A stretch of DNA of 64,000 nucleotides, taken from positions 69,679 to 133,678 of IMG/VR virus record IMGVR_UViG_3300048625_000299, one strand, 5' to 3'. Source of the DNA: a virus. Below, one piece after another: positions 17,455-30,766 of the stretch (positions within the stretch are counted from its first letter, which is position 1; the number at the start of each line of letters is the position of its first letter). A model generated the notes under the pieces. That model worked only from the letters and a program-made list of their open reading frames with translations. It made no database searches and was not told the DNA's origin. The translations under genes and the position numbers were made by a program.

Positions 17455-17651
17455 AATCTGGAATTGACCTTGAACTGAGCCTGGAACAGACGGGCGTAGT
17501 TGTTGTGGAAGAGTTGAAAGTGACTGTTGAAATCAACAGCACATATGAAGACCAACGATCGAAGGATATCGTCAAAGCAGCTGAGCTGTTGCTCAGCTAT
17601 TATATGGCGCCAGACGAACACCGAAAGTACTTGGAACAAAAATCCAGTTGA
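17451..17651 (+). CDS. Hypothetical protein
   Basis: ORF track. ATGA-coupled. Confidence 0.4.
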   Translation: MKSGIDLELSLEQTGVVVVEELKVTVEINSTYEDQRSKDIVKAAELLLSYYMAPDEHRKYLEQKSS

Positions 17652-17676
17652 CTTCGTAGCACGGACCCTATATAAT
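17648..17676 (+). promoter_or_regulatory. Consensus sigma70 promoter TTGACT-N17-TATAAT upstream of natV
   Basis: Exact hexamers read directly. Confidence 0.55.
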
Positions 17677-17730: not shown

Positions 17731-18750
17731 ATGTCAAAAAAATACGACACTCTCGTCCTCATCGGACGCTTTCAACCGTTTCATAACGCTCACCTTGAGA
17801 TCATCAAGCGTAGCACTGCGCTCTGTAATAAACTGATTGTTATTACGGGCAGCGCAAAACAGCCTCGCACATACAAGAATCCGTTCACCAGCTTTGAACG
17901 CGAGATGATGATCAAGCGTGCGACTGCAGGTCTCGCATTGACTATCAATGTCGTCGAAAACATCGACACAATCTACAACGACCAAGCCTGGGCTGTCCGG
18001 ATACAATCCATCGTGAACACATTGGCATGCGACGGTGATAAGATCGGCATCATCGGCCACAAGAAAGATGACAGCTCATTCTACTTGGATATGTTTCCGC
18101 AATGGGGATATGAGAACGTCGAAGAGATTGCACCGCTGAGTGCTGTCAATATTCGCGACCTGTACTTCAAGCGCAACTGTAATCTCGAATTCATTCGCGG
18201 GGTGGTACCTCAAACTACTTTCGAAATCTTGCTGGACTTCAAGCAAAGCGAAGAGTATGAACAAATCATCCGTGAGCGCGAGTTCGTAGAGAACTACAAA
18301 AAGCAGTACGCATCGCTTCCATATCCTCCAATCTTCAGTACTGCTGATGCTGTAGTGATCCAATCCGGCCATGTGCTGATGATTCGTCGTCGTGCTGAGC
18401 CAGGCAAAGGGTTGTGGGCGCTTCCCGGCGGATATGTGAACGCAAATACCGACAAGTCTGTTGAAGCTGCAATGCTCCGAGAGCTCCGCGAAGAAACAAA
18501 GATCAAAGTTCCCGAGCCAGTCCTGCGTGGTAATATCGTTCGCAGTAAGGTGTTCGATGCTGTCGATCGTAGTCCTCGTGGCCGCATTATCACTCATGCA
18601 TTCCACATTCAGTTGCCAGACGGCGAGCTGCCAAAGGTCAAAGGATCTGATGATGCTGAAAAGGCACGTTGGGTTCCGATTGCTGAAGTGAAGAGCGAAG
18701 ACTGCTTCGAAGACCACTTTGAAATTCTCCAACACTTTTTGGGAGCTTAA
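17731..18750 (+). CDS. natV: Bifunctional NMN adenylyltransferase / Nudix (ADP-ribose pyrophosphatase-type) protein, NadM/NatV-like
   Basis: N-terminal LVLIGRFQPFHNAHLEII (HxGH nucleotidyltransferase). C-terminal Nudix box GGYVNANTDKSVEAAMLRELREETKIKV. Confidence 0.85.
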   Translation: MSKKYDTLVLIGRFQPFHNAHLEIIKRSTALCNKLIVITGSAKQPRTYKNPFTSFEREMMIKRATAGLALTINVVENIDTIYNDQAWAVRIQSIVNTLACDGDKIGIIGHKKDDSSFYLDMFPQWGYENVEEIAPLSAVNIRDLYFKRNCNLEFIRGVVPQTTFEILLDFKQSEEYEQIIREREFVENYKKQYASLPYPPIFSTADAVVIQSGHVLMIRRRAEPGKGLWALPGGYVNANTDKSVEAAMLRELREETKIKVPEPVLRGNIVRSKVFDAVDRSPRGRIITHAFHIQLPDGELPKVKGSDDAEKARWVPIAEVKSEDCFEDHFEILQHFLGA

Positions 18751-18906: not shown

Positions 18907-19071
18907 GGATGGACTGACTGGAATTGGATTAACGTTGCGCTTGTCTTCGTGAATGGAGCAGTAGCGTATGATTGTTTCGCTGATAAGGACGTCGATCGTT
19001 CTTTCGGTGGTTGGGTGAACGTGGTTGCTAGTTCTATGAACACTGCAATGATTGCAATAAAGGTTTTGTAA
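18907..19071 (+). CDS. Small membrane protein (54 aa)
   Basis: GTGATG at 18904. WNWINVALVFVNGAVAY. Below the track cut-off. Confidence 0.3.
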   Translation, partial: GWTDWNWINVALVFVNGAVAYDCFADKDVDRSFGGWVNVVASSMNTAMIAIKVL

Positions 19072-19265
19072 TGGTACGAATTATCGATGCAACACCACAT
19101 CAGAGTGTGGTCAAAAAGAAGGTCTGCCGTCACTGTGGCGTGACGTTGGAGTATGTTCCTAACGACATTCAAGAACGACGAGTTACTGATTATGATGGCA
19201 GTAGCGAGCTGATCAAGTACATCGAGTGTCCTGCTTGCAAAACACACGTTGATGTGAGGTACTAA
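19071..19265 (+). CDS. Small zinc-ribbon protein (CxxC...CxxC)
   Basis: CRHCGVTLEY...CPACKTHV. Confidence 0.45.
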   Translation: MVRIIDATPHQSVVKKKVCRHCGVTLEYVPNDIQERRVTDYDGSSELIKYIECPACKTHVDVRY

Positions 19266-19266
19266 T

Positions 19267-20211
19267 ATGTGGAAAAATGTAAACGTCTTTGAAGATGAAA
19301 AAGAGCACGTTAAGAAGTATGTTTTCGAGAAAGATGACATCGCTATCGAGTCCGTTCTTTATCGTTATCCTACTTACGATGAACGCACTGTTCTCTGCAT
19401 TAGTACCATGTGCGGATGTCCAATGGGCTGTCGCTTTTGTGGAACTGGTGATTATTTTGTTCGTAGCCTTACTGCGGATGAAATTGTAGGCCAAGCTGAA
19501 TACATCCTCGAAACACAAATCGGCGGACTGAATCCTCGTGACATCAAGAAGTTGCAGATCATGGTGATGAGTATGGGCGAGCCTGCTTTGAACAAAGCTC
19601 TGGAAGAAGCATTCGATCGTCTGTATGCAAAGTACCCAAATGCAGCACTGCTGATTAGCTCAAGCGGTCCTAAGGTTAGCTACCAATGGATCATCGAAAT
19701 GAGCAAGCGGATTCCGACTGTCGGTTTGCAATTCAGCATTCACGAGAGTACAGACGAAGCACGCGACAAGTTGATTCCATTCGATAAGAAGTTGAACCTG
19801 CAAGAGATTGCTGATGTTGGCGTTCGCTGGCACTTGGATACTGGCCGTAAGCCATATTTCAACTATTGCGCTCACGAGGGCAACGATAAAGATGAGGACG
19901 TCCAACGACTACTCAAGTTGTACCATCCACGCATCTGGGAAGCGACTGTCTCTGTCATTTGTGAACGCGATGCTCATGCAGAAGCAACGAACGACAAGCA
20001 ACGCAACTTGGCTATTGAATTTGGTAACAAGCTGCTTGCTGAAGGTTACAACGTCCGTGTGTTCGATCCGGCTGGTCAGGATACAATCGGTGGTGGTTGT
20101 GGTCAGTTGTGGTATGTTCAAGACTGGATGAAGGACCATCCAGAGCACGTCAAGCCATCTGTTGGTTGTGGTATGCAAAAGGTCCACACACCAAAAGAAT
20201 GGAACGTATGA
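19267..20211 (+). CDS. Radical SAM enzyme of the RlmN/Cfr methyltransferase family, minimal form lacking the N-terminal RNA-binding extension
   Basis: VLCISTMCGCPMGCRFCGTG aligns with RlmN LCVSSQVGCALECKFCSTA (CxxxCxxC plus the upstream mechanistic Cys). IMVMSMGEPALN matches VVMMGMGEPLLN. ISSSGP matches LSTSG. FSIHESTDEARDKLIPFDKK matches [20 protein letters not shown]. C-terminal GGGCGQL matches AACGQL (the second mechanistic Cys). Confidence 0.75.
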   Translation: MWKNVNVFEDEKEHVKKYVFEKDDIAIESVLYRYPTYDERTVLCISTMCGCPMGCRFCGTGDYFVRSLTADEIVGQAEYILETQIGGLNPRDIKKLQIMVMSMGEPALNKALEEAFDRLYAKYPNAALLISSSGPKVSYQWIIEMSKRIPTVGLQFSIHESTDEARDKLIPFDKKLNLQEIADVGVRWHLDTGRKPYFNYCAHEGNDKDEDVQRLLKLYHPRIWEATVSVICERDAHAEATNDKQRNLAIEFGNKLLAEGYNVRVFDPAGQDTIGGGCGQLWYVQDWMKDHPEHVKPSVGCGMQKVHTPKEWNV

Positions 20212-20999
20212 AGTTTTTGATCCAATACAATCTAATGGCAGAGTCGCAACTCGAAGCAGTTAAGTCTGCAGCTCTGCCATATCCTCACCAGTATGTTGGA
20301 GTGATTCCGTTTTCAAATGAGATCACCGCAGCAGAGGGTGAAGAGATTGTTGGTACCGATTACATTCCATATGGGTCAACGCTGATGTCGACGATTGGCC
20401 TAGATTTGGGATGGAAGGGATTGCACTTCGATCTCGAACAGTTCAATTACGAAGCTGCAGTCGCCAATCGGGATGATATGCTGAATGATGGCGATATTAT
20501 GACTGTCGAAGAGACTATCGATTTCATGCGCGCCAGCACTCAAGAACAATGGTTCATCCGTCCTTCACTCGATCTGAAGCATTTTGCTGGGCAGGTAATC
20601 GAACGCATAGAGTGTGTGAAGTGGTTAACACAAGCACTCGGTTGTTCATCATCTGAGACGAAACGGATGTACAAAGACATGAAGATTGTCGTTGCAACAC
20701 CACAAAACATTCAAGCCGAATGGCGTTGGTTTGTGGTCGGAGGCAAAGTGGTCGATGGGTCAATGTACCGCTCACATGGTCAATTGATCAAGCTGCATGA
20801 GACTGATCCAAAAGTAATCGCTGAAGCACAAACGTTTGCTGATAAGTGGTTGCCAAACCAAAACGTCGTGATGGACTTGGCGCTTGTCGATGATGAATTG
20901 AAGGTAATTGAATTCAACTGTATCAACTGCAGTGGGTTCTACAATCACGATGTTCGTAAAATATTTGATGCACTGTATATGGAGAGTACAAAATGCTAA
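20208..20999 (+). CDS. ATP-grasp family enzyme
   Basis: ATGA-coupled start, chosen because the track's longer start overlaps the upstream gene. AEWRWFVVGGKVVDGSMYR and LKVIEFNCINCSGF resemble the ATP-grasp central and C-terminal motifs. Confidence 0.55.
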   Translation: MKFLIQYNLMAESQLEAVKSAALPYPHQYVGVIPFSNEITAAEGEEIVGTDYIPYGSTLMSTIGLDLGWKGLHFDLEQFNYEAAVANRDDMLNDGDIMTVEETIDFMRASTQEQWFIRPSLDLKHFAGQVIERIECVKWLTQALGCSSSETKRMYKDMKIVVATPQNIQAEWRWFVVGGKVVDGSMYRSHGQLIKLHETDPKVIAEAQTFADKWLPNQNVVMDLALVDDELKVIEFNCINCSGFYNHDVRKIFDALYMESTKC

Positions 21000-21478
21000 A
21001 GCATGTAAAAGGCAACTTACTCGATCTAGCTGAGGCTGGTCATTTTGATGTGGTTGTTCAAGGCTGCAATTGCTTCAACGCAATGGGCGGAGGGATCGCA
21101 CGTGAGATTCGCGAGCGCTATCCAGTAGCCGCGGCCGCTGACAATAAGACTGTTAAGGGCGATTACAATAAGCTGGGCAATTGGACCAGCTGCCCAATAA
21201 TTGTCGGAGACTTGGGCTATGTTTCTAGCTTCGTTATCATCAACGCATACACTCAATATAATATGAGCACTGGTCAAGATGTGTTCGAGTATGCAGCGTT
21301 TGAGCTGATCCTCCAAAAGCTACTCTACACGTATGGAGATAAGCGAATTGGATTTCCGTTCATTGGTATGGGCCTTGCCCGTGGTGATAAGCAACGAATC
21401 ATCGGAATGCTTGAATGGTTTGCAGATGAAATTGAGAAGCGTGGCGGTAGTGCAACGCTAGTGGAATTCCAGCCATGA
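20993..21478 (+). CDS. Macro domain protein (ADP-ribose-binding/processing)
   Basis: GCNCFNAMGGGIAREIRERYP (Gly-rich ADP-ribose-binding loop) and FPFIGMGLARG (second Macro loop). Confidence 0.7.
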   Translation: MLKHVKGNLLDLAEAGHFDVVVQGCNCFNAMGGGIAREIRERYPVAAAADNKTVKGDYNKLGNWTSCPIIVGDLGYVSSFVIINAYTQYNMSTGQDVFEYAAFELILQKLLYTYGDKRIGFPFIGMGLARGDKQRIIGMLEWFADEIEKRGGSATLVEFQP

Positions 21479-21972
21479 ACATAGTCAAGTCCCCAAACGA
21501 GTATACCACTCGCAATAAATTCTCAATCTTCCTTGCTGGATCAATTGAGATGGGCATGGCGGTAGATTGGCAACAATCGATCGCTGATGCGTTGTATGGC
21601 ATTGATGGAATACAGCTACTGAACCCACGTCGTGATGATTGGGATTCTAGCTGGGCACAAACGATCGAGAATCCACAATTTGCTGAGCAAGTAAGATGGG
21701 AGCTGACAGCACTCGAACGATCTGATTTGATCATCTACTACTTTGCACCAGGCACACAAAGTCCAATCTCGTTGCTTGAGCTGGGACTCTATGCAAACCA
21801 TACAAAGAACATCTGGGTGTGTTGTCCAGAAGGATTCTGGCGTAAGGGCAATATCGAGATCGTCTGCCAACGATACATGATTCCATTCTTTGATGATTTA
21901 GATCACATGGTGGACGATCTGAGGTACTATCTTCCGATTTGGACGGAAGATGGATATGAGCAGTTGACATAA
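21475..21972 (+). CDS. Nucleoside 2-deoxyribosyltransferase-like (SLOG/Rossmann) protein
   Basis: SIFLAGSIE...RSDLIIYYFAPGTQSPISLLELGLYANHTKNIWVCC matches the NDT/Rcl-family pattern (Y.AGP ... D.GT.fElG.a...gKpv). ATGA-coupled. Confidence 0.55.
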   Translation: MNIVKSPNEYTTRNKFSIFLAGSIEMGMAVDWQQSIADALYGIDGIQLLNPRRDDWDSSWAQTIENPQFAEQVRWELTALERSDLIIYYFAPGTQSPISLLELGLYANHTKNIWVCCPEGFWRKGNIEIVCQRYMIPFFDDLDHMVDDLRYYLPIWTEDGYEQLT

Positions 21973-21992
21973 CAATGGGGTTATGCTATACT
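21964..21992 (+). promoter_or_regulatory. Consensus sigma70 promoter TTGACA-N17-TGcTATACT upstream of nadV
   Basis: Hexamers read directly. The -35 overlaps the upstream stop codon. Confidence 0.55.
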
Positions 21993-22046: not shown

Positions 22047-23444
22047 ATGAAACTGAGCAAAAACATTCTACTGAACACAGACAGCTACAAAGTGTCAATG
22101 TGGAAGCAATACCCTGTTGGAACAACTGGCGTATTTTCTTACATCGAATCGCGTGGCGGTCGTTATGATCAAACAGTGATGTTTGGTCTGCAAGCGTTCA
22201 TCAAGGAGTACTTACTTGACCCCATTACACAGTCCGACATCGATATCGCCGAAGAGATTCTTCTCGCACACGGAGAGCCATTTAATCGTAGCGGCTGGCA
22301 GTATATCCTCGACAAGCACGACGGATATCTCCCCGTCGTCATCCGAGCAGTCCCCGAGGGTACTGTGGTACCGGTTAAGAATGTCCTCGCAACCATCGAG
22401 AACACAGATCCCAACGTACCGTGGCTGACTACATGGCTCGAGACTCCCTTGCTTCGTGCGATCTGGTATCCAACTACTGTGGCAACACAGAGCTGGTCGA
22501 TTCGCAAAGTGATTTTGGATTATTTGGAGAAGACTGGTGACCCTGCTCTTATCGATTTTAAGTTACACGACTTTGGTGCTCGCGGTGTTAGTTCCCTTGA
22601 GTCCGCTGGCATTGGCGGCGCCGCGCACCTCGTTAATTTCATGGGTACCGATACTGTTACCGGTTTGTTGTATGCTCGTGAGTATTACAACGCTGGTATT
22701 AGTGGGTTTTCAATTCCTGCAGCCGAGCACAGCACAATCACAAGTTGGGGCCGTGACGGAGAAGTCGACGCCTACCGAAACATGCTTACAAATTTCGCTC
22801 GGCCCGGGTCCATTGTTGCAGTCGTTTCCGACAGCTACGATGTATTCAATGCCGCTAGCAAATTGTGGGGAGAAGAGCTCCGTCAGCAAGTGATTGATAG
22901 CGGTGCTACTGTAGTGATTCGTCCTGATAGTGGTGACCCTGTTGAAGTCAACCGCAAGTTGATTGAGATCTTAGGAGAAAAGTTTGGATACACTACAAAC
23001 GCCAAAGGATTCAAAGTCCTCAATAATGTTCGCCTCATCCAGGGGGACGGTGTCAATGAGTTATCCATCCGCAGTATCCTTGGGGCACTCATGGCAATGG
23101 GATGGTCGGCAGATAATATTGCATTCGGTATGGGCGGTGCCTTGCTCCAGCAAGTTGACCGAGATACCCAGAAGTTTGCAATGAAATGTTCTTCTGCGAA
23201 GATCAATGACGTGTGGGTCGATGTACAAAAAGATCCAGTCACTGATAGTGGCAAGAAGTCGAAGGCAGGTCGAGTGACTCTTTGGAAGAGTGGCGGCGAA
23301 TGGATCAGTAGCGTTGAAAAGCCAGCTGGCTGGCACGATAAAGCAACTGGTGAGTTTGTTGAAGTGCTGGAAACAGTATACGCTAACGGAAAGTTGATTA
23401 ACGAATATACATTCGACAACATCCGAGCAAGAGCTCGCAAATAA
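22047..23444 (+). CDS. nadV: Nicotinamide phosphoribosyltransferase (NAMPT/NadV)
   Basis: HDFGARGVSSLESAGIGGAAHLVNFMGTDTV is the NAMPT signature. 465 aa, typical length. Confidence 0.85.
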   Translation: MKLSKNILLNTDSYKVSMWKQYPVGTTGVFSYIESRGGRYDQTVMFGLQAFIKEYLLDPITQSDIDIAEEILLAHGEPFNRSGWQYILDKHDGYLPVVIRAVPEGTVVPVKNVLATIENTDPNVPWLTTWLETPLLRAIWYPTTVATQSWSIRKVILDYLEKTGDPALIDFKLHDFGARGVSSLESAGIGGAAHLVNFMGTDTVTGLLYAREYYNAGISGFSIPAAEHSTITSWGRDGEVDAYRNMLTNFARPGSIVAVVSDSYDVFNAASKLWGEELRQQVIDSGATVVIRPDSGDPVEVNRKLIEILGEKFGYTTNAKGFKVLNNVRLIQGDGVNELSIRSILGALMAMGWSADNIAFGMGGALLQQVDRDTQKFAMKCSSAKINDVWVDVQKDPVTDSGKKSKAGRVTLWKSGGEWISSVEKPAGWHDKATGEFVEVLETVYANGKLINEYTFDNIRARARK

Positions 23445-23979: not shown

Positions 23980-24174
23980 ATGGAATACACATTAGTGATT
24001 TGGACAGTTGTTGCTGCATTTGGTACAGGAGCTGGCACATATAGGCCGCAAGAGTATCGAGATTGGCGACCGCTAGCCGTTTTCAATAACGGTGGCGCTC
24101 AATCAATGAACCAGTGTCAGGCAGCCGCTGAACAATTAAAGCTGCAAAAGTTTGAATGTATCAGAACCAAGTGA
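23980..24174 (+). CDS. Small membrane protein with a C-terminal Cys pair (member of a three-gene family in this window)
   Basis: N-terminal TM helix LVIWTVVAAFGTGAG, then ...QCQAAAEQLK...FECI. Compare 47441-47606 and 47822-47998. Confidence 0.4.
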   Translation: MEYTLVIWTVVAAFGTGAGTYRPQEYRDWRPLAVFNNGGAQSMNQCQAAAEQLKLQKFECIRTK

Positions 24175-24184
24175 AGGAAAGAAA

Positions 24185-25225
24185 ATGCGTAAACTTGCAT
24201 CCATTCGTCGGATCGACGAACTGAACCCTATTGAGGGTGCCGACAAAATCGAAGTAGCAACCGTTGGTGGTTGGAAAGTCGTGTGTCAAAAAGGTCTCTA
24301 TAATGTCGGAGATCTTGCTGTGTACTTCGAGATCGACTCGTGGATTCCATCTGCTGTTGCTCCGTTTCTGACAAAGGACGGCCACTTCCCCAAAGTGTTC
24401 GAGGGTGTTGAAGGTGAACGTCTAAAGACAATCCGCTTGCGCGGACAATTGTCTCAAGGTCTGTTGATGCCTATACACAACGACAAGACTGGCACATATT
24501 TGATGGTCTACACAGATGAAACTGGTGAATATTCGCTGACTGTAGCCGAAGGTGATGATGTATCTGAGCCTCTTGGTATCCTGAAATGGGAGAAGGCAAT
24601 CCCTGCTCAGCTCGCTGGCATTTCTCGTGGCAACTTCCCAACTTTGATTCCAAAGACCGACCAAGAGCGTGTGCAAAACTTGAAGAAAGAGATTGCTGCT
24701 GCTCAAGGACAAGTCTACGAAGTGACGGAAAAGCTGGAAGGCTCATCGATGACTTGCTATGTAATTGATGGTGAGTTCGGAGTATGCTCCCGTAACCTCA
24801 ACCTCAAGGAAACTGAGGGCAACTCATTCTGGAATGCAGCTCGCGACAATGACCTCGAGCAAAAAATGCTTGCTCGTCAGTACGACTTTGCAATCCAAGG
24901 TGAGTTGATTGGTCCTGGCGTTCAAGGTAATATCTACAAATTGACAAAGCCTGAGTTCTATGTGTTTGACATCTATGATGTTAAGGACGGCGAGTATATG
25001 AATCCAGCTGCACGTCGTCAATTGGTTGAGTCTCTTGGCCTGAAGCATGTACCGATTCTGGACGATATGTATGTCCTTAACGATGATGTAGAACAACTGT
25101 TGACGTTAGCCGAAGGCAAGTCTAGAATGTTTGATACAGAACGAGAAGGCATCGTGTTCAAACAGAATGACGGTGGCATGACGTTCAAAGCGATCTCGAA
25201 CAAGTACCTATTAAACGAGAAGTGA
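24185..25225 (+). CDS. ATP-dependent RNA ligase, Rnl2/Rnl5-like (nick-sealing type with an N-terminal OB-like domain)
   Basis: Motif I TEKLEGSS (cf. T4 Rnl2 EKIHGTN), motif IV EGIVFKQ, motif V FKAISNKYL. The N-terminal ~70 aa resembles the OB module of Rnl5-type ligases. SD aaggaaagaaaATG at 24185. Confidence 0.7.
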   Translation: MRKLASIRRIDELNPIEGADKIEVATVGGWKVVCQKGLYNVGDLAVYFEIDSWIPSAVAPFLTKDGHFPKVFEGVEGERLKTIRLRGQLSQGLLMPIHNDKTGTYLMVYTDETGEYSLTVAEGDDVSEPLGILKWEKAIPAQLAGISRGNFPTLIPKTDQERVQNLKKEIAAAQGQVYEVTEKLEGSSMTCYVIDGEFGVCSRNLNLKETEGNSFWNAARDNDLEQKMLARQYDFAIQGELIGPGVQGNIYKLTKPEFYVFDIYDVKDGEYMNPAARRQLVESLGLKHVPILDDMYVLNDDVEQLLTLAEGKSRMFDTEREGIVFKQNDGGMTFKAISNKYLLNEK

Positions 25226-25245
25226 TTTAAGTTTTCTCCCCTTTG

Positions 25246-25270
25246 CGCCGGCTTGACCGGCGTTCTTTTT
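25246..25270 (+). terminator. Rho-independent terminator
   Basis: cgccgg-cttga-ccggcg followed by ttcttttt. Confidence 0.6.
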
Positions 25271-26156: not shown

Positions 26157-26723
26157 ATGGTTATGAAAACATTTATTACAAGCGATATCCATTTCGGACA
26201 CAAGAACATTATGAGCTTCTGTCCAGTATCACGTGCTCGCTTCAAGGGCGACGTGGACTACATGAACGCTCAGATCATCCAAGACTGGAACAATATGATT
26301 GGTCCAGACGACTTGGTGTATATCTTGGGCGACGTTGCATTCTGCTCATGGGAGAAGGCTGTTGGCTTCTTGCGTTCGATGAACGGTCGCAAGATTTTGA
26401 TCAAGGGTAACCATGACAGCAAGCTCGTCAAGAGTCCAGAGTTCGTTGCCTGCTTCGAAAGCATTCACGACTACTTGACAATCACATACAATGGCACTCG
26501 AGTGTCGATGTTCCACTATCCAATTGCTGAGTGGGATCAGATGCATCGAGGTGCTGTCCACTTCTATGGTCACTTGCATGGTGGCACTAGCGGATTGGAA
26601 AAGTACCGAGCAATCGATGTTGGTATGGATGGCAATATGTGCTACCCACATGACATGGATGTTGCTGTGGCAACTGCATTGAAAGGTGAAATCAAAAAGC
26701 ACCATGACAAATATGGGAACTAA
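26157..26723 (+). CDS. Calcineurin-like metallophosphoesterase (2',3'-phosphoesterase candidate of an RNA repair Pnkp)
   Basis: DIHFGH, ILGDVAF and KGNHDSK match the metallophosphatase motifs I-III. Confidence 0.75.
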   Translation: MVMKTFITSDIHFGHKNIMSFCPVSRARFKGDVDYMNAQIIQDWNNMIGPDDLVYILGDVAFCSWEKAVGFLRSMNGRKILIKGNHDSKLVKSPEFVACFESIHDYLTITYNGTRVSMFHYPIAEWDQMHRGAVHFYGHLHGGTSGLEKYRAIDVGMDGNMCYPHDMDVAVATALKGEIKKHHDKYGN

Positions 26724-27206: not shown

Positions 27207-27467
27207 ATGGTGGTGTTTCCAAAGGAGTTCGTTGCGATTCGTTATCCAGGATACTTCTGGCACACAGTCGAGAAGCGCTTGTACACGATTAAAGTGTCTG
27301 GCGAACTCCGTCCATTGAAATTCTGCCGTGGTGGTACGTTCTATGGCAAAACAATTGAGCCTGGTTATCGTGTAAGTGTGCAAGGTGTACGTAAGAAAGT
27401 ATCGATGACCTATCTGGGTAGCATTGGCAACTCATGGGTACAACAAGAGATTCCATATGAAAGTTAA
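27207..27467 (+). CDS. Hypothetical protein
   Basis: ORF track. Confidence 0.4.
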   Translation: MVVFPKEFVAIRYPGYFWHTVEKRLYTIKVSGELRPLKFCRGGTFYGKTIEPGYRVSVQGVRKKVSMTYLGSIGNSWVQQEIPYES

Positions 27468-28344
27468 TTCAGCATCACTGAAGAAGTTCGTTGAAGAAAA
27501 TCCAAAGCTGGTATCTCGTCGTCCAGCCGGTGATGGCATCTACGTCCTGAAATACAAAAAGACTGTATTCTATGATGGTCTGTGGAACGATTACTTAGAA
27601 GAGTGTCGTGGTACGATTGTGGATGAAGATTACAACATCGTGTCATACCCATTCACGAAGGTATACAACTATGGCGTAGAAGCGAAGTCCCCTGTACTAG
27701 ATGGCAGTACGAAGATCAAAGCATACCGTAAAGTTAATGGCTTTATGGTCGCTGTAACGTGGCATAAAGACGATATCCTTGTGTCAACTACAGGATCAAC
27801 GGACTCCGATTATGTAAAAATGGCTCGTGAGTTTATCGATCGTGATTTGGATCTATACCGTGCTTGGTGTAAGGAATATTCGACATACACATTCATGTTT
27901 GAATGTGTCCATAAGGATGATCCGCACATCATTCCAGAAGTGGAAGGGATGTATTTGCTAGGACACCGTCCAAAGTTCTTTGGTTCACCAATTGGTGTGT
28001 CTGACGATATGCATAAGGCATTCAACTGCCATTCGGTTGAAGCAATTGAGTGTACGTTAGATACACTACGTTCGTTAGCTAAGACAGTGAAACACGAAGG
28101 GTTTGTATTATATACGTTGGACGGCATGATAGGCTCTAAGATCAAGAGTCCACATTACCTAGTGTCTAAGTTTGTTGCTCGTAATCCACGAACTGACAAA
28201 TTGATGCGTCCAGATGTGAAGAAGTCACTCGATGAGGAGTATTATCCATTAATCGATGCCATCCAAGCGAACATCGATGCGTATACTGCTATGGACGAAC
28301 AGACGCGATTAGCGTGGGTGAGGGAGTTTCTTTCAACTCAATGA
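27457..28344 (+). CDS. ATP-dependent RNA ligase, Rnl1-like
   Basis: Motif I RKVNGFMV (KxNG), motif IV EGFVLYT, motif V GSKIKSPHY. ATG with SD aagaga preferred over the track's TTG at 27424. Confidence 0.65.
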   Translation: MKVNSASLKKFVEENPKLVSRRPAGDGIYVLKYKKTVFYDGLWNDYLEECRGTIVDEDYNIVSYPFTKVYNYGVEAKSPVLDGSTKIKAYRKVNGFMVAVTWHKDDILVSTTGSTDSDYVKMAREFIDRDLDLYRAWCKEYSTYTFMFECVHKDDPHIIPEVEGMYLLGHRPKFFGSPIGVSDDMHKAFNCHSVEAIECTLDTLRSLAKTVKHEGFVLYTLDGMIGSKIKSPHYLVSKFVARNPRTDKLMRPDVKKSLDEEYYPLIDAIQANIDAYTAMDEQTRLAWVREFLSTQ

Positions 28345-29101: not shown

Positions 29102-30766
29102 TTATAGTGCAATCTGCGACACAGTCACAATTACAGACGGAATTGCAGGACAGAAGGCAGTTGCTGCAGGAGCCGCTATGAACGCTCCAAGGTTACTGAC
29201 AGCCCACATAAGCTCAAAGTAATCGTTGGTGTTCATCGATACTTGGAAGTTCCAAGATGGAACCTTATACTCTTCGTTGCCTGTAATGGTGAGTATCGAT
29301 GCTGTGTTGGGAATATCAGCGCCATTCTTTCTCGCCCATATGTATATTTCCTTTTTAGATGCTGTTTGCGAGGTAACCTGCAATGAAAACTTATAGTCGT
29401 AGAATCCAGACGCTTCTGCTACTATTCTCGTTTCATTGATGATGTGGTGTCCATTAGAGATGTCAGGAGTGCGCATCTTCACAGCATATGGAGTGTTTAT
29501 TACGGCTGCTGTCTGGCTGAGTACATCTAAGAAGGTTCCATAATACAAACGTGGATATATCGTTGGGCGAACCAGTAATATACCATCCCCACTACCTACG
29601 TGGAGTACAGCAGCAATGCTTACTACTATATTTGGTGCGTATGGTTTGACCTTTGTTAGTTTGCCAGCCATAGTCGGGTGGACGTAGAGCAAGTCGCCTT
29701 TTACCCATACTTCTCCAACGCTCGAGCCAGTCGTATCCATATCATGCACTTTACCGTTCCATGTAGCACGACCAGTGGTATTGTTTGGTAAATCGTTTGT
29801 CAATACGCCAACAGTATACAATCCATGCACAGTACCGTTAGCGATGTGTGGGACTACGATCGGTTCGTGTGCATTAGCTTCATATACGCCAGCAAACCTA
29901 ACAACAGTACCATTAGGCATAGTAGTACCGCTCTCGTTGCGGACGCGTATGTAGTGCTCCAGACCTGTTTGTAATGTGGATCCATCAGCGTGGTGAATGT
30001 CCAAACAATCCTCATCAGGATTCCAAGCAACTTGACCTGCAACAAGACTGACGTCTGGTCCTATAGTATTGTATCTTGTTGTCTTGATTGGTCCTATATC
30101 TTCGGTGAACTGTACTTTCTTAGTCGCAGCGTCATATTCCAATACCCAGTTATCATTTGTGGTATTCATTGTGCCACGATTAACATCATCGAGGTAGCGG
30201 AATAGTACCTCACCGCCGCCAGGGCCAGCCATGCTGATTTTGCTAACCCATCCTTCAAGCAATTTCAACTTGTTTTGGATTGCCTGGATGTCCCTACCCG
30301 TAGCAGCGGGCTCTGGTTGTACGAACATCGAAGGTGCAGTTGTGTCTGTCAGTCTCTTTGCTGCTGCATCCGCCAACGATGGTGTTTCGGGCGGAGCAAG
30401 TATTGCAGACTTCTCGACCAACTCATCGAACTGTTGATCCTCAACCACTTCTTCAGTTATAGTCACTTGTCGATCATCGGATTCCGGCTTTATGGATTCA
30501 ATGTGTTCTAGGACATTGGTAAAGCGGTCAAGCAGTGCCTGCTCTTCTTCTGTTTTCTTTTTGTCTTCTGCGACGAGCTTATTGATGTCCTTAGCGAGGT
30601 CTGTGAACAGCGATTTGAACGCTGTCTTGCGCTCCTCCTGCATCGCAAGCTGTCTATCCTCTTTCAGCTGCTCTGCAGCGATTTGGTCATAGATTGACTG
30701 CTCAGTTTGTACGCCGAGCTTTTCATTCATCTTGACTATTAATCGTAATTCTTTTAGCTTATTCAT
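29102..30766 (-). CDS. Large protein with an N-terminal coiled coil and a C-terminal beta-rich domain (candidate virion fibre or adhesin)
   Basis: 554 aa. Residues 1-120 are heptad-like and charged. The C-terminal 350 aa are G/T/N/V-rich. No catalytic motif recognised. Confidence 0.5.
   Translation of the reverse strand: MNKLKELRLIVKMNEKLGVQTEQSIYDQIAAEQLKEDRQLAMQEERKTAFKSLFTDLAKDINKLVAEDKKKTEEEQALLDRFTNVLEHIESIKPESDDRQVTITEEVVEDQQFDELVEKSAILAPPETPSLADAAAKRLTDTTAPSMFVQPEPAATGRDIQAIQNKLKLLEGWVSKISMAGPGGGEVLFRYLDDVNRGTMNTTNDNWVLEYDAATKKVQFTEDIGPIKTTRYNTIGPDVSLVAGQVAWNPDEDCLDIHHADGSTLQTGLEHYIRVRNESGTTMPNGTVVRFAGVYEANAHEPIVVPHIANGTVHGLYTVGVLTNDLPNNTTGRATWNGKVHDMDTTGSSVGEVWVKGDLLYVHPTMAGKLTKVKPYAPNIVVSIAAVLHVGSGDGILLVRPTIYPRLYYGTFLDVLSQTAAVINTPYAVKMRTPDISNGHHIINETRIVAEASGFYDYKFSLQVTSQTASKKEIYIWARKNGADIPNTASILTITGNEEYKVPSWNFQVSMNTNDYFELMWAVSNLGAFIAAPAATAFCPAIPSVIVTVSQIAL

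Follow-up and report, generated by a model that had tools for sequence, protein, structure and literature searches.

A 64,000-nucleotide (nt) stretch from a large, uncultivated phage (IMG/VR record IMGVR_UViG_3300048625_000299, positions 69,679 to 133,678; hereafter the window) encodes on its plus strand, at 19267..20211, a 314-residue radical S-adenosylmethionine (SAM) protein, here termed rSAM, that consists of an RlmN/Cfr-type catalytic core without the RlmN_N domain. The open reading frame (ORF) begins with ATG, includes its stop codon within these coordinates and is preceded by a GAGG about 8 nt upstream; its start lies 1 nt past the stop codon of a small zinc-ribbon ORF. An identical copy of the gene is present in IMG/VR UViG_3300023700_000899, and a megablast search of the surrounding 5.8-kb region against INPHARED gave no match. 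The best phage-family match of the protein, PHROG 24834, carries no assigned function, and a scan of PADLOC-DB returned no defence-system model that the protein matched at E<=0.01.

The rSAM ORF is a member of the RlmN/Cfr class-A radical-SAM methyltransferase superfamily, as the original prediction had it, rather than of the NrdG or QueE families; profile, PDB sequence and fold matches agree in this. A Pfam scan detects the generic Radical_SAM family (PF04055) alone. Among NCBIfam models, the best match is RlmN (TIGR00048; E=9e-29, 100.4 bits, profile positions 71-342 of 355), the top eight matches are RlmN or Cfr models and no other, the next subfamily follows at E=0.006, and NrdG2 reaches E=0.018. 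A PDB sequence search finds Cfr 9P0P first (E=2.5e-21), then RlmN 3RF9 (E=1.5e-15), with RlmN 6FZ6 matched as well. The AlphaFold2 model, built from a 58-sequence alignment, is confident (pLDDT 94.8, pTM 0.92). When compared to the PDB by Foldseek, its 11 best matches are all RlmN or Cfr structures (6fz6, 3rfa, 5hr6, 9p0p; E=1e-17 to 6e-13; TM-score up to 0.75), and a large gap separates them from the next fold, that of viperin, at E=2e-6. All sequence motifs on which the assignment was first based are present: LCISTMCGCPMGCRFCGTG, MGEPALN, SSSGP, SIHESTDEARD and GGGCGQL.

The catalytic residues map onto those of RlmN one for one. For this comparison, the window protein, Cfr, 77 relatives from databases and an E. 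coli RlmN reference sequence 100% identical to 3RF9 were aligned together. RlmN E105 corresponds to E28, C118 to C44, C125/129/132 to C51/55/58 and C355 to C278. The segment LCISTMCGCPMGCRFCGTG (residues 43-61; 19393..19449, plus strand) contains the CX3CX2C motif for the [4Fe-4S] cluster (Cys51/55/58) and, seven residues ahead of it, the resolving Cys44, equivalent to RlmN C118 and Cfr C105. The GGGCGQL loop (residues 275-281; 20089..20109, plus strand) supplies Cys278, the equivalent of the methyl-carrier cysteine (C355 in RlmN, C338 in Cfr). Both mechanistic cysteines that had been claimed for the protein, including the one in the CGQL motif, thus align as expected and are kept clade-wide. 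Indeed, among 153 unique phage-clade sequences from 165 loci, which extend down to about 41% identity, C44, C51 and C58 occur in all 153, C55 in 152 and C278 in 150, the remaining three being truncated. K17 (151/153) and E28 (150/153) are similarly conserved. Where RlmN and Cfr have R-x-x-x-G-x-D-I-D-A-A-CGQL, the clade has its own signature, FxPAGQDxIGGGCGQL. The near-invariance of this set in ~150 sequences indicates that the complete RlmN/Cfr ping-pong methylation apparatus is under strong purifying selection, and, judged by these residues, the window enzyme has in all likelihood retained the RlmN/Cfr methylation mechanism.

The same conservation bears on whether the protein might be degenerate or repurposed, serving as a SAM- or iron-sulfur-binding factor or performing other radical chemistry with no methylation. 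Some distant cluster representatives lack the C118 or C355 equivalents, and a cysteine-less RlmN-like ORF occupies a comparable genomic position in another phage. The latter (locus L229, 6779-7699, on the 318-kb IMG/VR UViG_3300025015_000009) is a second, more divergent family member, 26% identical to the window protein, with TIGR00048 as its best model (65 bits). It lies between genes for an NMNAT-Nudix fusion and NAMPT, the slot that rSAM itself occupies in the window, and lacks both mechanistic cysteines together with the entire C-terminal CGQL loop; a search for its close relatives returned only itself. Against a degenerate protein stand the cysteines, cluster motif, E28 and K17, whose invariance in ~150 sequences speaks for selection on a complete methyl-transfer cycle, as well as a confident model that follows the RlmN fold along its length. 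We regard loss of methylation as very improbable.

By its sequence, the window protein is nonetheless not an RlmN or Cfr orthologue. Its 100.4 bits against TIGR00048 compare with a cutoff of 290, its 67.9 bits against PRK11194 with a cutoff of 633, and its ~90-91 bits against the Cfr models NF000424, TIGR04432 and PRK14453 with cutoffs of 468-550, below the orthologue thresholds in each case. The RlmN_N domain (PF21016) is not detected in the window protein at E<=1, and it is likewise not found in clade members bearing unrelated N-terminal extensions. The same profile matches residues 18-77 of E. coli RlmN at 110 bits and is positive in two canonical sequences of our set (P0218 and P0245). The N-terminal RNA-docking domain is therefore missing, as first proposed, but its size had been put too high at ~100 residues: RlmN_N measures 60 residues, and the shortfall amounts to ~77 residues in E. 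coli numbering and to ~65-70 against TIGR00048 or Cfr.

The core itself has also diverged. Ten core positions carry K or R in at least 70% of twelve canonical enzymes; at four of these, the window protein shows R206 replaced by A126, R207 by A127, K300 by H220 and R344 by F266, with K or R there in 0-15% of the clade. In RlmN, R206 forms bidentate interactions with G29 of the tRNA, and a 17-mer anticodon stem-loop is not a substrate (PMC5130265). Several barrel-lining or pocket positions have switched clade-wide as well (A231Q, E278N, N307T, I309S and G177S). The median isoelectric point (pI) of the clade is 5.66 (n=125) vs 8.2 for canonical enzymes (n=12; Mann-Whitney p=3e-6, w/o phylogenetic correction), and the net charge is -6 as opposed to +2.5, a gap that remains once the canonical N-terminal domain is removed. 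Comparing the pI with only E. coli RlmN (6.6) and Cfr (7.0) gives no discrimination, the shift being seen in the clade-wide comparison only. Because RlmN_N and several RNA-contact basic residues are lost, methylation of 23S rRNA A2503 or tRNA A37 in the canonical way is judged unlikely, and, since a host RlmN would also make such a function redundant, the specificity of the enzyme probably differs from that of RlmN and Cfr.

Proteins of this kind form a large clade. About 5,000 relatives are found at E<=1e-5, and the best 120 of them are all ~310-330 residues long and 69-91% identical to the window protein. Of the clusters in a 50%-identity library, 71 match with E<1e-30, and an RlmN-type N-terminal domain is missing from those that are full-length; canonical enzymes of 340-365 residues turn up only near E=1e-22. 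Relatives occur on 302 IMG/VR contigs, many of 100-430 kb, and at 77 loci in GTDB genomes scattered across many phyla, a patchiness that would be expected of prophage-borne genes. Cultured carriers, all at <=56% identity, are Stenotrophomonas phages ANB28 and BUCTxx99, Xanthomonas phage JGB6, seven Vibrio phages, 166E36-1 among them, Salmonella phage Arash and Aeromonas phage Ahp1. Their annotations vary between RlmN, 'prohibitin family protein', partial radical SAM protein and hypothetical protein. The prohibitin name, given under the rSAM match in OR529408.1 (BUCTxx99) and OQ436456.1 (JGB6), has the appearance of a naming error; a Band 7/SPFH gene neighbours rSAM in four lineages and may explain it. 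A set of mouse-gut phage contigs (loci L178-L181, within a gut lineage of 114 contigs, P0274) encodes a DUF2828/DUF7788 protein ~1.5 kb downstream of rSAM, and around rSAM on these contigs no NAD genes are in view. Three distant members (P0124, P0130 and P0155) lie on contigs too short or too poorly annotated to offer useful context.

In the window, rSAM sits in a co-directional plus-strand run of genes that overlap or are separated by tiny gaps. The run begins with an NMNAT (CTP_transf_like)-Nudix fusion of the NadM/NatV type (17731..18750), the first gene of a nicotinamide adenine dinucleotide (NAD) module, and extends to a nicotinamide phosphoribosyltransferase, NAMPT/NadV (22047..23444; Pfam NAMPT_N and NAPRTase). 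Small ORFs follow the NMNAT-Nudix gene, after which comes the zinc-ribbon ORF (19071..19265), whose 64-residue product has four cysteines (CRHCG...CPAC) and which is translationally coupled to rSAM. Its cysteine spacing is that of a zinc ribbon or rubredoxin; related loci have it upstream of rSAM in 10-13 cases, and it is also present in one NAD locus (L186) where no rSAM was detected. Downstream, a gene for an ATP-grasp protein of the R2K clade (20208..20999; PF14243, PF18299) overlaps the rSAM stop codon by 4 nt and, being found in only three loci of the set, represents a lineage-specific insert in the NAD slot. It is followed by a Macro-domain protein predicted to bind or hydrolyse ADP-ribose (ADPR; 20993..21478; weak Pfam Macro and weak DarG macro matches) and by a nucleoside 2-deoxyribosyltransferase (NDT)-like protein (21475..21972; PF15891). 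NAMPT and NMNAT together constitute the NAD+ reconstitution pathway known as NARP2 (bioRxiv 10.1101/2024.02.11.579819), and in the window this NARP2-type pair flanks the rSAM gene. The placement of rSAM within an NAD/ADP-ribose cluster is accordingly borne out here by Pfam matches for the NMNAT-Nudix, ATP-grasp, Macro, NDT-like and NAMPT genes; across the clade, the linkage proves only facultative.

Several further features surround this module. A near-consensus sigma-70-like promoter (TTGACT-17-TATAAT; 17648..17676, plus strand) precedes the NMNAT-Nudix gene and is suggestive, by its sequence, of a possible start for a transcription unit that would include rSAM. A second one (TTGACA-17-TATACT with extended TG; 21964-21992, plus strand) lies just upstream of NAMPT, and a GC-rich, terminator-like hairpin (25245-25263, plus strand) follows the first RNA ligase; a promoter and terminator scan of the region found site counts no higher than in shuffled controls. 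Beyond NAMPT, the plus strand encodes an RNA_ligase with a PHA02142 OB domain (24152-25225), a calcineurin-like phosphoesterase (26157-26723) and a T4 Rnl1-type ligase (27424-28344), and the two ligases with the phosphoesterase between them look like an RNA-repair set. On the minus strand, a 554-residue ORF (29102-30766) has a C-terminal half that shares 53% identity with a Limnohabitans phage DC31 protein and also resembles tail-fibre proteins of other phages, which hints at a freshwater betaproteobacterial host.

The neighbourhood of rSAM was then compared across 165 clade loci with up to 8 kb of flanking sequence. All ORFs within 5 kb of rSAM were clustered with no families preselected, cluster representatives were checked by Pfam, and loci were grouped into 49 lineages at 70% rSAM identity. 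The commonest conserved neighbour is NMNAT-Nudix, in 14 of the 49 lineages and 40 loci. Next come NAMPT (11 lineages), ribose-phosphate pyrophosphokinase Prs (7), and glutamine-dependent NAD synthetase NadE, NDT-like and PncA-like isochorismatase genes (6 each); Macro, NADAR, N6/N4 DNA methylase, Band 7 and PTH2 genes each occur in 4. An NAD/ADPR gene lies within 5 kb of rSAM in 19/49 lineages and in 41/108 loci with full flanks. By a rough estimate, a random gene would find itself beside such a gene in 3% of cases or less, given a 10-kb window within genomes of 100-300 kb and the published frequencies of NadV (22-33% of medium and jumbo phages; PMC9503650) and NARP2 (1.1% of phages; bioRxiv 10.1101/2024.02.11.579819).

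The spacing of these genes is often tight. Frequently, rSAM is inserted between the NMNAT-Nudix and NAMPT genes, with 11-12 nt separating it from NMNAT-Nudix at three loci (L011, L012 and L044) and with flanking gaps of 4 nt and 12 nt at another (L037). In 97 loci that have both enzymes, a set biased by the manner in which it was gathered, the slot between them contains Macro 30 times, rSAM 23 times, the zinc ribbon 13 times and the NDT-like gene 12 times. Two further loci (L058 and L062) have the arrangement rSAM-Macro-NADAR, and no gene for NAD synthesis was detected there within 8 kb. As a side note, two loci whose rSAM is 76% identical to that of the window (L005 and L006) contain a ribosomal protein S21 homologue (2546-2752) that adjoins a ClpX-like AAA+ protein (1332-2543), the pair being situated ~5 kb upstream of the NAD module.

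From these associations, we tentatively favour the view that rSAM is a functional class-A radical-SAM methylase which modifies adenine at carbon and whose substrate, a non-canonical one, is linked to the NAD/ADP-ribose counter-defence module, although we place this below an even chance. That the substrate belongs to the NAD/ADPR network is held with the same reserve. Mechanistically, a first SAM would methylate Cys278, and a second SAM would be cleaved at the [4Fe-4S] cluster on Cys51/55/58 to yield a 5'-deoxyadenosyl radical. This radical would take a hydrogen from methyl-Cys278, the methylene radical so formed would attack C2 or C8, an sp2 carbon in an adenine ring, and Cys44 would resolve the enzyme-substrate adduct. 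As its target we tentatively propose the adenine in a scarce nucleotide that derives from NAD or ADPR, for instance an immune signal of the ADPR type, an ADPR conjugate or the NAD-capped end of an RNA. In such a scheme, rSAM would act as an optional accessory to the NARP2 genes (NAMPT and NMNAT-Nudix) and to the ADPR-processing Macro, NADAR and NDT-like genes. The more specific proposition that the methyl group is put on a ring carbon of an NAD+- or ADPR-derived nucleotide, be it a Thoeris-type cyclic ADPR signal, macromolecule-bound ADP-ribose or an NAD cap, appears rather unlikely as it stands. By a Minisci-like logic, the pyridinium ring of nicotinamide mononucleotide or NAD is also a conceivable target.

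A number of observations weigh against this view. Class-A enzymes are slow and consume two SAM per turnover, which makes it implausible that one of them would modify a millimolar NAD pool wholesale; a scarce substrate suits such an enzyme better than a bulk metabolite, be it an ADPR-derived signal, an ADPR conjugate or the end of an NAD-capped RNA. No class-A radical-SAM methylase that takes a free nucleotide as its substrate is known to us. RlmN and Cfr act on RNA, as MrmA is inferred to do (PMC11983580). Some of the basic core residues are kept, namely K17, R66 and R166 (K94, R141 and R242 in RlmN), and the acidity of the clade is not decisive, given that the pI of E. coli RlmN is 6.6. Among the 80 NAMPT loci closest to the NAMPT of the window, rSAM is found within 8 kb in only 3 (2/41 with full flanks), whereas an NMNAT gene is present in 71; a core or regular role for rSAM in NARP2 is rejected on this ~4% frequency. 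The NARP2 of phage KVP40, moreover, works as a two-gene pathway (bioRxiv 10.1101/2024.02.11.579819). Conversely, an NAD gene is lacking within 5-8 kb at ~60% of rSAM loci, and hidden Markov models found none in the first 100 kb of Stenotrophomonas phage ANB28 (genome length 108 kb), which speaks against the idea that rSAM carriers always encode NAD salvage elsewhere. An rSAM-Nudix fusion followed directly by NAMPT and NMNAT genes occurs on one contig (P0138). It might have served as Rosetta-stone proof of a functional link, and was down-weighted when a dedicated search showed it to be a singleton (one contig, two member sequences). Finally, co-location with NAD genes could simply reflect an accessory or anti-defence island. 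As few NAMPT loci carry rSAM, some 60% of rSAM loci have no NAD gene and the context in ANB28 is a different one, rSAM is an autonomous, facultative accessory and not a core step of NAD+ reconstitution.

The ANB28 locus also introduces the foremost alternative. In this phage, rSAM lies inside a tRNA cluster, with RtcB ~10 kb away, a setting consistent with an RNA adenine C-methyltransferase that has acquired a new RNA target, which could be a tRNA of the host or of the phage, a further adenine in rRNA, or RNA that is repaired or unstructured. Such an enzyme might confer immunity of tRNA to anticodon nucleases or tune translation, and the NAD genes would merely share an early accessory or anti-defence region with it, or be connected to it through NAD-consuming RNA repair. 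Family precedent is on its side through RlmN and Cfr, and through MrmA, a transposon-borne enzyme whose presumed target is another rRNA adenine; so are the full catalytic set and the three retained basic residues. In the genomes, tRNA genes lie within 5 kb of rSAM at 15/165 loci (8/49 lineages) and directly adjoin it at four (L051, L117, L128 and L146). The two RNA ligases and the phosphoesterase lie within 8 kb in the window, an RNA ligase is found 62 nt downstream of rSAM at one locus (L024), PTH2 is a neighbour in 4 lineages, and the rarity of rSAM among NAMPT loci points the same way. Yet the RlmN_N domain is absent, and the extended tRNA contacts that RlmN requires (PMC5130265) would have to be made without the equivalents of R206, R207, K300 and R344, by a clade with a net charge of -6 where canonical enzymes have +2.5. 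Host RlmN already makes 2-methyladenosine at the canonical sites, so that the same targets would be redundant. RNA-related neighbours are also fewer than NAD/ADPR ones, none of them coming near NMNAT-Nudix or NAMPT in the unbiased ranking, and tRNA proximity at 9% of loci is estimated to be close to the large-phage background; as a general pattern, the tRNA-cluster context suggested by ANB28 falls short, with a minority of 8/49 lineages. We consider a new RNA target possible, though we lean against it.

A second alternative arises from a 26-locus high-GC lineage, one of those without an NAD gene close by, in which rSAM lies beside ORFs read from sequence as recombination and replication genes. 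The enzyme could C-methylate adenine in DNA, or a deoxyadenine nucleotide, and thereby block restriction or DNA-sensing defences. An N6/N4 DNA methylase neighbours rSAM in 4 lineages, and the NDT-like and Nudix neighbours could in principle handle deoxynucleotides. A distant branch of the family offers another hint, of deoxynucleoside triphosphate (dNTP) chemistry, in a bacterial fusion protein with a dGTPase-type HD domain (P0209). This 759-residue protein (locus L032, 724-3003), encoded on a metagenome contig with aconitase and histidinol dehydrogenase genes, joins an RlmN-like core that lacks the N-terminal domain and keeps both cysteines to an HD domain matching the PADLOC dGTPase defence model at E=4e-46; a DUF7768 gene follows. 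From this architecture, P0209 may itself be a defence gene that couples radical-SAM chemistry to dNTP hydrolysis. It is, however, equally far from the window protein (31%) and from RlmN (32%), no deoxynucleoside monophosphate kinase, dATPase or polymerase co-varies with rSAM in the neighbour analysis, and the recurrent neighbours are NAD enzymes rather than DNA-precursor enzymes. To our knowledge, neither C2- nor C8-methyl-deoxyadenosine has been found in any phage DNA. A DNA or deoxynucleotide substrate is thus improbable.

Between an NAD/ADPR-derived nucleotide and a new RNA target, the evidence is weighed almost equally: family precedent speaks for RNA, while the neighbours, the acidity and the lost RNA contacts speak for the nucleotide. 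The original suggestion that a truncated homologue would have a different substrate has been strengthened by the NAD/ADPR neighbours, the loss of RNA-contact arginines and the acidic pI, which fall short of proof. Its companion claim, that this is not a characterised phage function, agrees with our literature search, which found no description of the clade. The word 'radical' does not occur in a survey of viral NAD-ADPR functions (PMC9503650), in the NARP1/2 preprint, in the NARP3 paper or in a paper on large Vibrio phages, and RlmN is not mentioned in a review of tRNA modification in viruses.

What emerges is a large clade, confined to phages and prophage-like loci, that has kept the catalytic set and lost the RNA-docking domain. 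Database labels for its members read 23S rRNA methyltransferase or hypothetical protein, and the present results argue against naming these genes RlmN or Cfr-like resistance determinants. The only strong genomic signal of the clade is its association with phage NAD+/ADPR counter-defence modules, in which no radical-SAM component has been reported. The class-A radical-SAM methylases described so far, namely RlmN, Cfr and now MrmA, are as far as we know all RNA modifiers. If the reading that ties rSAM to NAD/ADPR chemistry is true, it would be the first such methylase with a non-RNA substrate and would represent a new counter-defence chemistry beside NAD+ reconstitution, extending both radical methylation chemistry and phage anti-immunity. 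If instead the target is a new RNA, rSAM would provide an uncommon example of RNA C-methylation directed by a phage. The window enzyme is small and confidently modelled.

Among known systems, E. coli RlmN (PDB 3RF9/3RFA, 5HR6/5HR7), the dual-specificity C2-methyltransferase of 23S rRNA A2503 and tRNA A37, is an obvious point of reference. The two share a radical-SAM partial barrel with an N-terminal beta extension, the CX3CX2C motif, both cysteines, the E105 equivalent and the MGEP and CGQL motifs, and their Foldseek TM-score is 0.71-0.75. The window protein is only 23% identical to RlmN and differs from it in lacking RlmN_N (residues 18-77) and the basic C-terminal tail; it is also acidic, phage-encoded and often located within NAD/ADPR modules. 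Cfr from S. aureus (PDB 9P0P), the 23S rRNA A2503 C8-methyltransferase that confers PhLOPSA resistance, is 27% identical and has the same cysteines (C105, C112/116/119 and C338) and the same 5'-deoxyadenosine pocket motifs, whereas its N-terminal helical lobe is missing from rSAM. Of the residues implicated in the C8 selectivity of Cfr (PMC12887959), Y97 is identical (Tyr34), while W101, S103, Q329 and F330 become Asp38, Arg40, Pro268 and Ala269, as mapped from the PDB-search alignment. Nothing suggests an antibiotic-resistance function for rSAM.

A different comparison is offered by MrmA, an RlmN-like radical-SAM methyltransferase on the C. difficile elements Tn6110/Tn7806 that gives macrolide and streptogramin B resistance and whose presumed 23S rRNA target is thought to be other than A2503 (PMC11983580). 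Like rSAM, it is a family member borne by a mobile element, and it demonstrates that the family can change specificity; unlike rSAM, it has no NAD context, and the likeness is drawn from its published description. With the NARP2 of Vibrio phage KVP40 (NadV/NatV), the window has both enzymes in common, in a layout that recurs in independent lineages, but NARP2 is by definition a two-gene pathway, and rSAM is present in just ~4% of the sampled NAMPT loci. Viperin (e.g. PDB 6Q2P), finally, dehydrates CTP, has no methyl-carrier or resolving cysteine and is only 14-17% identical. Viperins are nevertheless the next-best structural neighbours of rSAM, and they set a precedent for radical-SAM enzymes that act on free nucleotides in the conflict between virus and host.

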